This document shows, in pieces, positions 7,098 through 11,851 of a stretch of 12,185 bases of DNA. The stretch lies in IMG/VR virus record IMGVR_UViG_2541047898_000011. The stretch is one strand, 5' to 3'. Source of the stretch: a virus. Lineage: Duplodnaviria; Heunggongvirae; Uroviricota; Caudoviricetes. The position numbers were made by a program, and so were the translations under genes. The notes under the pieces were generated by a model, which ran no database searches, was not told the DNA's origin, and saw only the letters and a program-made list of their open reading frames with translations. Each line of letters opens with the position of its first letter. Within the stretch, counting starts at the first letter, position 1.

Positions 7098-7117
7098 CGA
7101 TGGATGGGATATTGAAG

Positions 7118-7810
7118 TTAATTATGTCTCTTAAGGGTTTGCGACTGACTGATTAAGACCTTTCCAAAGACCATGAATCGGTGTTCGTTTTCGCTAGTAA
7201 TTCCCCATTCACGGTAAATCTGGTTATCAGAAATCACCAGCAGTTTGTCAGGAATCATTTGAAGTCTTTTAACGTATATTTTGTCATCAAAACCAAAGAC
7301 ATATATACCATCACCATCAAACTGATTGATGCTGACATCAACGAAGATGAGATCTCCTGGCTCAATGGTTGGACACATACTGTCCCCACGAACGTTGATA
7401 ACTTTGATGTGATTGGCTGGTCGTCCGCCGAACATTGATACAGCATTATCAGTTCTGTATTCGATGGCATGAATCACATCAATGACATCACCGCCCTGGA
7501 TAAGGCCATTTCCCGCACTGGCACTGATATCCAACATTTCAATACGGAACACATCCTTCACCTGCGCAACATCCTCATCATTACTGTTTTTATATACAGT
7601 ATTACTTTTGAGGGCAGAGGTAAAGAGATCAGCAATATCAACACCTAAGCTCTTGGCAATATTACTCAGTGTTTGTTCGGTAAATTGTTTCTGCTTACCC
7701 GTTTCTAAGCGCGAGATGTTCGCCGCATCTACTCCTATTGCTTCAGCGAGATCGGCGATTTTCATGTTCTTCGCTTGGCGAAGTTGTCTGACTCGTTTTC
7801 CTATGTTCAT
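7118..7810 (-). CDS. cI-like prophage repressor (HTH XRE domain plus S24 LexA-type peptidase domain)
   Basis: 230 aa; N-terminal HTH (IADLAEAIGVDAANISRLETG), Ala-Gly site in SASAGNG, GDSM serine and a downstream lysine (VKRLQ); no SD before the ATG, consistent with a leaderless transcript. Confidence 0.85.
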   Translation of the reverse strand: MNIGKRVRQLRQAKNMKIADLAEAIGVDAANISRLETGKQKQFTEQTLSNIAKSLGVDIADLFTSALKSNTVYKNSNDEDVAQVKDVFRIEMLDISASAGNGLIQGGDVIDVIHAIEYRTDNAVSMFGGRPANHIKVINVRGDSMCPTIEPGDLIFVDVSINQFDGDGIYVFGFDDKIYVKRLQMIPDKLLVISDNQIYREWGITSENEHRFMVFGKVLISQSQTLKRHN

Positions 7811-9047: not shown

Positions 9048-9067
9048 AGGTCGGTCATGAGCACTAA
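8888..9067 (+). CDS. Candidate small protein in an alternative frame (TTG start), coupled to the replication gene
   Basis: AAGGAG at 8874-8879, 8 nt spacer, TTG at 8888; reads [40 protein letters not shown]...; stop at 9065-9067 overlaps the replication gene ATG at 9057. Confidence 0.3.
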
Positions 9068-9998
9068 ATTAACCGGCTATGTATGGGATGGTTGCGCAGC
9101 GTCAGGCATGAAATTATCCAGCGTGGCAATTATGGCCCGCCTGGCTGATTTCAGTAATGACGAAGGTGTGTGCTGGCCATCAATTGAAACCATTGCCCGC
9201 CAGATTGGCGCGGGGATGAGTACCGTCAGAACGGCTATCGCACGGCTGGAAGCAGAAGGCTGGTTAACGCGTAAGGCGCGTCGCCAGGGTAACCGCAATG
9301 CGTCGAATGTTTATCAGCTTAACGTTGCGAAGCTTCAGGCAGCGGCATTTTCTCAACTGTCAGATTCTGACCCGTCAAAATCTGACGCATCAAAATCTGA
9401 CCCGTCAAAATTTGATGCGTCGAAATCTGGCAAAAAAGCGGGTTTTCACCCGTCAGAATCTGGCGGGGATCCGTCAGTAAAATCAAAACATGATCCGTCA
9501 GATAAAAAACCTTCTCGTCCGGACGCTTCGCAACCGGACACGCAGACGGCTGAACAGGATTTTTTAACTCGCCATCCTGATGCGGTTGTATTCAGCCCTA
9601 AAAAACGCCAGTGGGGGACGCAGGATGATTTGACCTGCGCACAGTGGCTCTGGAAAAAAATCATCGCCCTGTACGAGCAGGCAGCCGAATGTGACGGCGA
9701 GGTGGTTCGTCCCAAAGAACCGAACTGGACAGCCTGGGCAAACGAAATTCGCCTGATGTGTGTGCAGGATGGTCGTACTCACAAACAAATCTGCGAGATG
9801 TACAGCCGCGTCAGCCGCGATCCGTTCTGGTGCCGTAACGTGCTCAGCCCGTCGAAGCTGCGGGAAAAATGGGATGAGCTTTCCCTGCGCTTATCGCCGT
9901 CCGTCAGCACATACACAGAAAAACGTGAAGATCCGTACTTCAAATCCAGTTACGACAACGTGGACTACAGCCAGATCCCGGCAGGATTCAGGGGGTGA
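9057..9998 (+). CDS. Replication initiator, lambda O-like (N-terminal winged HTH, iteron-encoded linker, C-terminal domain)
   Basis: 313 aa; N-terminal HTH; internal SDPSKSDASKSDPSKFDASKS linker encoded by tandem 15 bp DNA repeats; position after cII. Confidence 0.65.
   Translation: MSTKLTGYVWDGCAASGMKLSSVAIMARLADFSNDEGVCWPSIETIARQIGAGMSTVRTAIARLEAEGWLTRKARRQGNRNASNVYQLNVAKLQAAAFSQLSDSDPSKSDASKSDPSKFDASKSGKKAGFHPSESGGDPSVKSKHDPSDKKPSRPDASQPDTQTAEQDFLTRHPDAVVFSPKKRQWGTQDDLTCAQWLWKKIIALYEQAAECDGEVVRPKEPNWTAWANEIRLMCVQDGRTHKQICEMYSRVSRDPFWCRNVLSPSKLREKWDELSLRLSPSVSTYTEKREDPYFKSSYDNVDYSQIPAGFRG
9361..9510. repeat. Putative origin of replication: four 15 bp iterons plus CCGTCAG-containing repeats inside the initiator gene
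   Basis: TCTGACCCGTCAAAA (9366-9380), TCTGACGCATCAAAA (9381-9395), TCTGACCCGTCAAAA (9396-9410), TTTGATGCGTCGAAA (9411-9425); cagattctga at 9361-9370 recurs inverted at 9454-9463. Confidence 0.55.
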
Positions 9999-10489
9999 TC
10001 ATGAGTCTTTTGAATGAAGTTCAGAAATTCATTGAAGCCCATCCGGGGTGTACTTCCGGAGACATTGCGGATGCTTTTGCAGGTTACTCACGGCAGCGCG
10101 TTCTGCAGTCAGCAAGCAAGTTACGTCAGAGTGGGCGTGTGGCTCACCGTTGTGAAGGAGATACACGCAGACATTTCCCGCGCCTGACTGAGAGAGCGCA
10201 GGAACCGGAACCACAACCAGTTCGTGAAACCAGACCTGTGCGCAATTTCTATGTCGGCACTAACGACCCCCGGGTGATTTTGTGCCTGACCCGCCAGGCT
10301 GAAGAACTGGAGTCCAGGGGCTTATACCGTCGTGCTGCAACGGTGTGGATGGCGGCATTCCGTGAAAGCCACTCCCAGCCAGAACGAAACAATTTTCTGG
10401 CGCGTCGTGAACGGTGTTTACGGAAAAGCAGTAAGCGGGCTGCATCAGGTGAAGAGTGGTATCTCTCAGGGAATTACGTGGGGGCTTAA
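9995..10489 (+). CDS. Phage protein with N-terminal winged-helix-like region and C-terminal PerC-like motif
   Basis: 164 aa; C-terminal LE..G.YRRAA..W...R......RR..CL pattern resembles PerC/Pch regulators as I recall them; ATGA coupling with the replication gene. Confidence 0.4.
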   Translation: MIMSLLNEVQKFIEAHPGCTSGDIADAFAGYSRQRVLQSASKLRQSGRVAHRCEGDTRRHFPRLTERAQEPEPQPVRETRPVRNFYVGTNDPRVILCLTRQAEELESRGLYRRAATVWMAAFRESHSQPERNNFLARRERCLRKSSKRAASGEEWYLSGNYVGA

Positions 10490-11142
10490 TGAGTAATAAA
10501 TATTGCCAGGCGCTGGCGGAACTGCGGAACAAACCAGCCCATGAACTGAAGGAAGTGGGCGATCAGTGGCGCACGCCGGACAACATTTTCTGGGGAATTA
10601 ACACCCTGTTTGGCCCGTTTGTTCTGGATCTGTTCACTGACGGTGATAACGCCAAATGTGCTGCGTATTACACGGCGGAAGACAACGCGCTGGCGCATGA
10701 CTGGTCAGAACGCCTTGCGGAGCTTAAAGGTGCTGCCTTTGGTAATCCCCCATACAGCCGCGCCAGTCAGCATGAGGGGCAATACATCACCGGCATGCGT
10801 TACATCATGAAGCATGCCAGTGCCATGCGTGATAAAGGCGGGCGCTATGTTTTCCTGATCAAAGCTGCCACCAGCGAAGTGTGGTGGCCGGAAGATGCAG
10901 ATCATATTGCTTTTATTCGCGGGCGTATTGGTTTTGAACTGCCTGCCTGGTTTATCCCGAAGGATGAGAAGCAGGTGCCGACAGGCGCTTTCTTCGCTGG
11001 TGCTATTGCTGTTTTCGACAAGACCTGGAAGGGACCGGCAATCAGCTACATCGGGCGCGATGAACTTGAGTCATGTGGTGAGGCCTTTCTGGCGCAGGTT
11101 CGCCAGCAGGCAGAAAAACTGGTCAGGGAGATGGCGGCATGA
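10489..11142 (+). CDS. Phage Dam-type DNA N6-adenine methyltransferase
   Basis: Motif IV NPPY (GAAFGNPPYSR); preferred start ATG at 10489 (MSNKY) overlapping the upstream stop as TAATG; ORF track gives 10456-11142. Confidence 0.7.
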   Translation: MSNKYCQALAELRNKPAHELKEVGDQWRTPDNIFWGINTLFGPFVLDLFTDGDNAKCAAYYTAEDNALAHDWSERLAELKGAAFGNPPYSRASQHEGQYITGMRYIMKHASAMRDKGGRYVFLIKAATSEVWWPEDADHIAFIRGRIGFELPAWFIPKDEKQVPTGAFFAGAIAVFDKTWKGPAISYIGRDELESCGEAFLAQVRQQAEKLVREMAA

Positions 11143-11465
11143 CGACGTTAACTCAATGCCAGCAGCAGGTGCTGGATATGCTGATTTCTTATCAGAAAGA
11201 ACGTGGCTTCCCGCCAACCAATCAGGAGGTGGCAACCATGCTGGGATACCGTTCAGTGAATGCAGCGGTGGAGCATCTTCGCGCACTGGAGAAAAAAGGC
11301 GTCATCACGATAAAGCGTGGCGTGGCCCGGGGCATCACGCTTCATACCGCGGTGAAGGACGACGACAGCGAGGCGGTCGGGATTATCCGCGCACTGCTTG
11401 CCGGTGAGGCAAACGCCAGGCTGCGTGCAGCCCACTGGTTACATGAGAGGGGCCTGAAAGTATGA
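11139..11465 (+). CDS. LexA DNA-binding-domain-only protein (no peptidase domain)
   Basis: 108 aa; LTQCQQQVLDMLISYQKERGFPPTNQEVATMLGYRSVNAAVEHLRALEKKGVI closely parallels the LexA N-terminus (LTARQQEVFDLI...[34 protein letters not shown]); ATGA coupling. Confidence 0.55.
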   Translation: MTTLTQCQQQVLDMLISYQKERGFPPTNQEVATMLGYRSVNAAVEHLRALEKKGVITIKRGVARGITLHTAVKDDDSEAVGIIRALLAGEANARLRAAHWLHERGLKV

Positions 11466-11851
11466 AGCTAATACTGCCTTTTCCGCCCAGCGTGAACACG
11501 TACTGGCGACACCCCAACAAAGGGGCGCTTGCAGGTAAGAGCCTGATAAGCGCGGCGGGGCGAAAATTCCAGAGCGCAGCGTGTGCAGCCATCATTGAGC
11601 AGTTACGTCGTCTGCCGAAACCAACGTCGGCACCAGCTTCAGTGGAGATCGTGTTGTTTCCTCCGGATAACCGGCTTCGCGATCTGGACAACTATAACAA
11701 GGCGCTGTTTGACGCCCTGACCCACGCGGGTGTGTGGGTGGACGACAGCCAGGTGAAAAGAATGCTGGTGGAGTGGGGGCCGGTTATCCCGGAAGGGAAG
11801 GTCGAAATCACTATCAGTAAGTACGAGAAAACGGCGGGTGCAGCCGCCTGA
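11462..11851 (+). CDS. rusA: RusA Holliday-junction resolvase
   Basis: 129 aa; LPFPPSVNTYWRH and RDLDNYNKALFDALT...VWVDDSQV match RusA motifs; usual position in the ninR region. Confidence 0.8.
   Translation: MKLILPFPPSVNTYWRHPNKGALAGKSLISAAGRKFQSAACAAIIEQLRRLPKPTSAPASVEIVLFPPDNRLRDLDNYNKALFDALTHAGVWVDDSQVKRMLVEWGPVIPEGKVEITISKYEKTAGAAA

Follow-up and report, generated by a model that had tools for sequence, protein, structure and literature searches.

What does a temperate phage gain from the DNA-binding head of its host's SOS repressor, once that head has been parted from the domain through which the repressor is inactivated? The question is raised by a small gene, here labelled lexN, on a 12,185-nucleotide stretch of DNA from a tailed phage (Caudoviricetes; IMG/VR record IMGVR_UViG_2541047898_000011; hereafter the window). 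An initial annotation had described its 108-residue product, encoded at 11139–11465, as a prophage homologue of the LexA N-terminal domain that lacks the autocleavage domain and should withstand SOS induction, and had proposed that it keeps SOS-box or phage promoters repressed whatever the state of RecA, or competes with host LexA. We find the structural description to be correct, and consider lexN likely to be a functional, non-cleavable, LexA-fold DNA-binding regulator made in lytic development.

Residues 1–65 of lexN match the entire Pfam model LexA_DNA_bind (PF01726, model positions 1–65 of 65; E=2.9e-19, 69 bits against a cut-off of 23.7), and a phmmer search of PDB sequences pairs residues 2–70 with the N-domain of E. 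coli LexA (1lea, E=6e-16). In an AlphaFold2 model built from a 24-sequence family alignment (mean predicted local distance difference test score, pLDDT, 83.7) the head comprises helices 6–22, 28–35 and 40–52 and wing strands 56–58 and 66–68, followed by a low-confidence linker. Foldseek superposes this head on the LexA structures 1lea and 3jso with root mean square deviations of 1.1–1.3 Å over 67–70 residues, at about 50% identity. The protein also matches PHROG 362 ('transcriptional repressor') across positions 1–106 of 106 (E=4e-59), and a 100% identical copy in phage vB_EcoM-720R4 is annotated 'LexA-like protein'. The missing peptidase is equally clear: the Pfam scan that recognised Peptidase_S24 (PF00717) in the neighbouring CI repressor at E=6e-19 found no match to it in lexN, and the NCBIfam equivalog TIGR00498 (lexA) scores 70.7 bits, below its cut-off of 110.95, and covers only model positions 1–91 of 203. 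Family members were gathered by three scans of viral contigs with different lead sequences; all 240 surveyed are 106–143 residues long, none has an S24 domain, and the family profile matches LexA at positions 1–74 only.

Beyond the head, lexN carries what look like remnants of the LexA linker and cleavage-site segment. HMMER aligns residues 78–90 (…IIRALLAGE) with the LexA segment (…LVGRVAAGE), which places Ala88-Gly89 opposite A84-G85, yet Gly89 is N, R, D, E or C in relatives and AlphaFold2 predicts the segment to be helical rather than an extended strand. With the catalytic domain absent and the residual Ala88-Gly89 pair not conserved in the family, lexN should be insensitive to activated RecA (RecA*), and the annotation's expectation that the protein survives SOS induction uncleaved is soundly drawn.

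The tail is modelled as two helices, 75–88 and 93–102, with block pLDDT of 86–89. All 24 sequences compared, down to 40% identity, have hydrophobic residues at positions 83, 86, 87, 97, 100 and 101, a pattern from which we infer two amphipathic helices, and the tail itself is retained in relatives as distant as about 40% identity. Over 612 sequence pairs the median ratio of nonsynonymous to synonymous substitution rates (dN/dS) is 0.16 for residues 1–70 and 0.25 for the tail, so that both halves of the protein are under purifying selection. Neither Foldseek nor a sequence profile finds a relative of the tail in the PDB, and matches in BFVD align with the winged helix-turn-helix only. LexA dimerises through its C-domain, and its isolated N-domain binds operators weakly; the hairpin may therefore supply dimerisation or a partner contact, and probably takes over dimerisation from the lost C-domain. 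Some distant relatives consist of two LexA N-domains in tandem (140–165 residues, no S24; P0133, P0156, P0160 and P0164), and such proteins, which would be covalent pseudo-dimers, fit a need for two heads.

How far, then, does lexN retain the DNA-reading surface of LexA? The residues through which E. coli LexA contacts DNA are Ser39, Asn41, Ala42, Glu44 and Glu45 (PMC13416735, a secondary source). Four of these five base contacts are kept in lexN (S39, N41, A42 and E45), the fifth being changed (E44V), and lexN has the same wing sequence as LexA, R64-G65-I66. No family member departs from S39, R64, G65 or I66; N41 is almost always retained, and A42 and E45 usually are. The kept contacts and wing make it plausible that lexN of the E. 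coli type could read a CTGT half-site. Its recognition helix is SVNAAVEHLR, while that of the Klebsiella type is SSNAVLLHLR and those found elsewhere are SPNAATDMLR, SGNAAFEHLR, SPNAAAEHVK and SGNTAAGHVK, so specificity across the family as a whole looks diversified. Compared with E. coli LexA, lexN thus shares the N-domain fold, about half of the residues over positions 2–70 and most of the reading surface; it differs in E44V and R28N, and in having no S24 peptidase and dimerisation domain it would undergo no RecA*-stimulated self-cleavage and form no LexA-type dimer. Other forms of LexA that cannot be cleaved, the products of lexA(Ind-) alleles and the N-terminal fragment, can in principle keep SOS operators closed despite RecA*. 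The Ind- protein retains the dimerising C-domain, and the natural 1–84 fragment is a weak binder that ClpXP degrades; what sets lexN apart from both is a conserved tail of its own and a C-terminus unlike theirs.

The window represents early-region DNA of an SfV-like lambdoid prophage, with the gene order CI (helix-turn-helix and S24), Cro, CII, an O-like replication protein, PerC/YfdN, Dam, lexN, RusA and the start of KilA-N (Table 1). These neighbours confirm the prophage origin given in the annotation, as does DNA identity to known phages: the cI–cro segment shows 98.7% identity to Shigella phage SfII and 93% to mEp460, Stx2a (Shiga toxin 2a) phages and 1720a-02, and near-identical prophages lie at dusA in E. 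coli chromosomes. On the evidence of its start and stop overlaps with dam and rusA, lexN is translated from the early-right (nin-region) operon, and a protein made from such a delayed-early lytic operon would have its effect once the prophage is induced or a cell infected, rather than in the resting lysogen. Within the O-like replication gene (9057–9998), four and a third 15-bp repeats, TCTGACCCGTCAAAA, at 9366–9429 encode a low-complexity DPSKSDASKS stretch and are probably origin iterons, as in lambdoid O genes.

Table 1. Coordinates of lexN, its parts and the associated genes and boxes; positions without a locus label refer to the window.
Feature	Position	Strand	Basis or remark
lexN coding sequence	11139..11465	+	108 residues; ATG start, TGA stop included; open reading frame (ORF) list
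LexA-type winged helix-turn-helix, residues 1–69	11139..11345	+	AlphaFold2, Foldseek, family profile
Recognition helix, residues 39–48, SVNAAVEHLR	11253..11282	+	LexA alignment, per-column family table
Predicted amphipathic helical hairpin, residues 75–102 (helices 75–88 and 93–102)	11361..11444	+	AlphaFold2, hydrophobicity, dN/dS
cI	7118-7810	-	Pfam helix-turn-helix and S24 (E=6e-19)
Consensus SOS box TACTGTTTTTATATACAGTA inside cI	7582-7601	.	27.1 bits on the operator matrix
Phage N-6-adenine methyltransferase (Dam family), upstream gene	10456..11142	+	PF05869, E=1e-45; TIGR01712, 253.6 bits
AGGGAG ribosome-binding site, 8-nt spacer, ATGA overlap of dam stop and lexN start	11125..11142	+	sequence
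ATGA overlap of lexN stop and rusA start (translational coupling)	11462..11465	+	sequence
RusA Holliday-junction resolvase, downstream gene	11462..11851	+	PF05866, E=1e-14; PHROG 34
Klebsiella-type operon (Klebsiella phage Kp4865-4)	L017:10288-11402		terminator, SOS box, dinI, 96-residue ORF, LexA head
Methylase SOS boxes	SfV L005:34170-34189; L006:44083 (cdtI); L008:41489; L009:24659; L010:27291; L011-L015		

The mechanism we propose begins with a phage that would have captured the N-terminal domain of an enterobacterial LexA and thereby acquired a small regulator that RecA cannot inactivate. Dimerised through the amphipathic hairpin, lexN would bind CTGT-type inverted repeats, that is, SOS boxes; being made only after derepression or infection, and being proof against cleavage, it would re-occupy the LexA operators vacated when host LexA cleaves itself, and so act as a phage-imposed SOS off-switch. 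Its likely targets would be the box inside cI, a box at the 5' end of a late methylase gene and a box before KilA-N in SfIV-type relatives, with host SOS promoters as possible further targets. That lexN has canonical SOS boxes for operators and acts on them as a repressor we put forward tentatively, as something that may be so but which we would not expect with confidence. The complete scheme, a virus-encoded, RecA-proof LexA surrogate that closes phage and host SOS operators after induction, is more doubtful, and we regard it as rather unlikely in this full form.

Candidate boxes were scored with a matrix compiled from 20 SOS operators of E. coli, which recovers the two lexA operators directly upstream of host lexA in two chromosomal loci; the sequences used for these two are thereby shown to be real, but the recovery is no independent validation, as both operators belong to the training set. 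Each of the complete phage genomes examined that carry lexN has at least one SOS box of at least 22 bits. Among CTGT/ACAG inverted repeats with spacers of 0–16 nt, enrichment in lexN-carrying genomes is seen at N8 only, and no conserved non-canonical palindrome was found in these genomes. We also considered ACTGT-N14-ACAGT as an alternative operator and rejected it, its matches falling in a baseplate gene or at a genome end. The late-region box, TACTGTAAAAATAAACAGTG, overlaps codons 3–9 (NTVKINS) of an N6/N4 DNA methylase gene that lies between Q and the lysis genes; it scores 20.5–23.8 bits and is present in SfV, cdtI, Ayreon, 1720a-02 and two chromosomal prophages, although its conservation may come partly from constraint on the protein. 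The third box, of about 23 bits, lies in the roughly 170-nt intergenic region between rusA and KilA-N of SfIV (L007:32639–32658), and is found in this place, some 700 nt downstream of the lexN start, in 15 of the 80 E. coli-type loci (L018–L097); LexA control of the KilA-N gene is therefore predicted for these SfIV-type relatives. In the window itself rusA and KilA-N are only 20 nt apart, with no box between them.

Other SOS-related genes were seen in phages of this group. The cdtI phage, which carries lexN, has two strong SOS boxes upstream of a dinI homologue (L006:26458–26767), and in mEp390 (L016:20396–20725) a dinI homologue preceded by a strong SOS box is accompanied by a UmuD-like gene. 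SOS-modulating cargo thus appears to accumulate in lexN-carrying genomes.

The box inside cI, TACTGTTTTTATATACAGTA, is the only zero-mismatch CTGT-N8-ACAG in the window, and we take this 20-mer to be identical to the umuDC operator. By our own arithmetic TACTGT-N8-ACAGTA is expected by chance about 7e-4 times in 12 kb. The box is kept at about codon 70 in seven CI lineages with amino-acid identity down to 51% (this window and SfII, mEp460, ST64B, Klebsiella phage 1 LV-2017, Flotzy, Citrobacter phiNP and Salmonella Fels-1), is absent from CI homologues of 43–49% identity, and is surrounded by a linker that is hypervariable at the protein level. Host LexA, and possibly lexN as well, may use it as an operator. 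In four of five aligned sequences the TACTGT arm is preceded on the cI-sense strand, at a distance of exactly 17 nt, by TTTACC (Flotzy has TTTACA), and none of the five has an indel in the spacer between them; TTTACC-N17-TACTGT is presumably the geometry of the sulA promoter. This arrangement suggests a LexA-controlled promoter inside cI, from which a transcript encoding just the C-terminal part would run to the terminator at 7098–7081. Late genes of Fels-1 are still induced in a lexA3 host, so the cI box cannot be essential for induction. Our literature search found no mention of an SOS box inside cI.

A further connection to SOS regulation comes from the Klebsiella branch of the family (L098–L177), in which rusA is adjacent to the LexA-head gene in none of 80 loci. 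The order there is terminator, SOS box, dinI, a 96-residue reading frame (orf96) and the LexA-head gene, as in Klebsiella phage Kp4865-4 (Table 1). The box lies within 120 nt of dinI in 71 of the 80 loci; the boxes of this branch score 22.8–30.2 bits, and the DinI-family gene is recognised by Pfam at E=8e-26. The layout is that of the LexA-controlled dinI–antirepressor operons of Gifsy prophages, with terminator, LexA box, dinI homologue and small ORF (PMC3121763); the Klebsiella-branch locus differs in adding the LexA-head gene as a third gene, and lexN of the window lies outside any such operon. The product of orf96 belongs to PHROG 1813, which has no assigned function; we considered it as an antirepressor of the Gifsy GftA type and set this aside, having found no similarity to Gifsy sequences. 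The Klebsiella branch connects the family with the SOS circuit and suggests LexA-like autoregulation; SOS induction of its LexA-head gene is predicted, jointly with that of a modulator of the RecA filament.

Several observations weigh against the view that lexN represses SOS boxes. No family member has retained the Glu44 or the Arg28 of LexA, and the recognition helix is fixed inside branches and different between them, which would be unexpected if all members read one host operator. The boxes are not peculiar to phages with the gene: the methylase box is also present in phiP27, Stx2_EH2201, Flotzy and the linear-plasmid prophage phiKO2, all of which lack lexN, and the cI-internal box is found in ST64B, a Klebsiella phage and Flotzy with no homologue within 6 kb. 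An association of phage SOS boxes with lexN is thereby ruled out, the cI and methylase boxes being equally present in phages without the gene. The search for SOS-box-like sites that the initial annotation had recommended therefore gave a divided answer, in that the prophage does hold strong boxes and these boxes are not specific to carriers of lexN; host LexA would be their general ligand and lexN at most an optional second one. Most loci of the divergent branch, moreover, have no box within 4 kb. The delayed-early position of the gene qualifies the annotation and tells against the idea as first framed, for the resting lysogen, and the annotation also overlooked that LexA dimerises via the very domain lexN has lost, a function for which the hairpin probably has to substitute. 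Finally, gp6 of the Bacillus thuringiensis tectivirus GIL01, the only characterised truncated phage LexA homologue, reads a non-LexA palindrome and activates transcription.

The gp6 precedent leads to the rival that survives best, in which lexN is a phage-specific regulator with a diverged LexA head, an operator of its own outside the SOS set and possibly an activating role. We regard this too as unlikely on balance, its weight deriving mainly from the branch-specific recognition helices, which vary as immunity specificities do, and from the systematic loss of E44 and R28. GIL01 gp6, a truncated homologue that shares 44% identity with the LexA of B. thuringiensis, binds the palindrome GaCACAnnTGTGaC overlapping the -35 element of the late promoter P3 and thereby activates it, while host LexA and gp7 repress (PMC6182141). 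Like lexN, gp6 is a phage-encoded LexA winged helix-turn-helix without S24, encoded in the early operon of a temperate phage that is SOS-inducible and whose genome also holds host-LexA boxes, and proteins consisting of a LexA head only are widespread in unrelated phages in BFVD. The likeness has limits: gp6 has 66 residues and no tail, whereas lexN has a conserved 38-residue helical hairpin tail; the gp6 recognition helix is different (K38), whereas lexN keeps four of the five E. coli LexA contact residues; and the target and activator role of gp6 are shown by experiment, whereas the target and role of lexN are predicted. Direct homology between the two was rejected, BLASTP giving no alignment at E<=100, and a MAFFT alignment shows 35% identity over the winged helix-turn-helix only, each protein being closer to the LexA of its own host. 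The missing BLAST alignment and the tailless form of gp6 argue for independent captures of different host LexA heads, and lexN would be the second, independently evolved phage domestication of this head after gp6. The absence of a conserved non-canonical palindrome, with enrichment confined to canonical N8 boxes, counts against a gp6-like operator in lexN-carrying genomes, and lambdoid late transcription is already served by the Q antiterminator.

Less probable still is a non-transcriptional role, as an accessory of recombination or replication that works with RusA, by targeting or modulating it, or with another protein partner. The 4-nt overlap of lexN with rusA is kept in 80 of 80 E. coli-type and 64 of 80 divergent loci (144 of 160) while lexN falls to 42% identity and RusA to 64%, and the mEp390 homologue, 47% identical, has the same arrangement. 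Such persistence speaks for a partnership, but nin-region genes are often packed with overlaps whatever their function, the Klebsiella branch has its gene beside dinI under an SOS box instead, and conservation falls on the residues of a recognition helix and wing that read sequence; we consider this role improbable. It is very improbable indeed that lexN is a decaying lexA remnant or a pseudo-substrate decoy that places Ala-Gly in the S24 sites of LexA or CI, for although the Ala88-Gly89 pair is present in a segment alignable with the LexA cleavage site, Gly89 is not conserved and the segment is predicted helical, and low dN/dS in both halves, constant length and presence of the gene in thousands of genomes effectively refute the remnant idea.

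The gene is widely distributed. Copies 95–100% identical to lexN are found in SfV (orf42), SfII, SfIV, cdtI, mEp460, fifteen Stx2c phages and others, under annotations that range from 'LexA-like protein', 'LexA DNA binding domain protein' and 'transcriptional repressor' to 'SOS-response repressor and protease LexA', the last of which is wrong. Of 5,426 complete E. coli genomes, 2,675 contain a match to the 1,786-bp dam–lexN–rusA–kilA-N segment, and in 1,637 (30%) the match extends over at least 80% of the segment. A full-text literature search found no functional study of the PHROG 362 family, only catalogue mentions. A survey of Stx phages lists 'pham 237, LexA family transcriptional regulator, pfam01726' and discusses it alongside CI-type repressors, and a preprint on the 'bully phage' 1720a-02, which carries lexN, credits its effect to Cro and not to lexN.

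Some other features of the window deserve mention. Just downstream of cI and its terminator, a 73-residue ORF on the minus strand (6630–6851) encodes a ClpX C4 zinc finger and nothing else (Pfam zf-C4_ClpX, E=1.4e-10), labelled 'ClpX C4-type zinc finger protein' in RefSeq; it may be a decoy or adaptor for substrate recognition by ClpX. Positions 1–991 hold two ORFs of 179 residues, with a signal-peptide-like N-terminus, and 144 residues, neither of which matches the defence-system library, and scans with defence-system and RNA-family libraries returned nothing meaningful.

In E. coli, prophage induction, Shiga-toxin release, mutagenesis and antibiotic tolerance are all under the control of the SOS response, and at least 30% of the complete genomes of this species carry lexN, as do Stx2a, Stx2c, cdt and Shigella serotype-converting phages. 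Should lexN exert RecA-proof repression of the LexA type, it would amount to a widespread phage-imposed SOS off-switch that alters the behaviour of induced cells and of co-resident prophages, and it could silence the LexA-controlled antirepressors of rival prophages. By keeping ruvAB low it might also leave junctions free for the co-translated RusA. Apart from lexN, the conserved box inside the cleavable CI gene points to an unrecognised layer of host-LexA control in many lambdoid phages. Even if the target of lexN were specific to the phage, its conserved tail would give a LexA head a novel module for dimerisation or partner contact.

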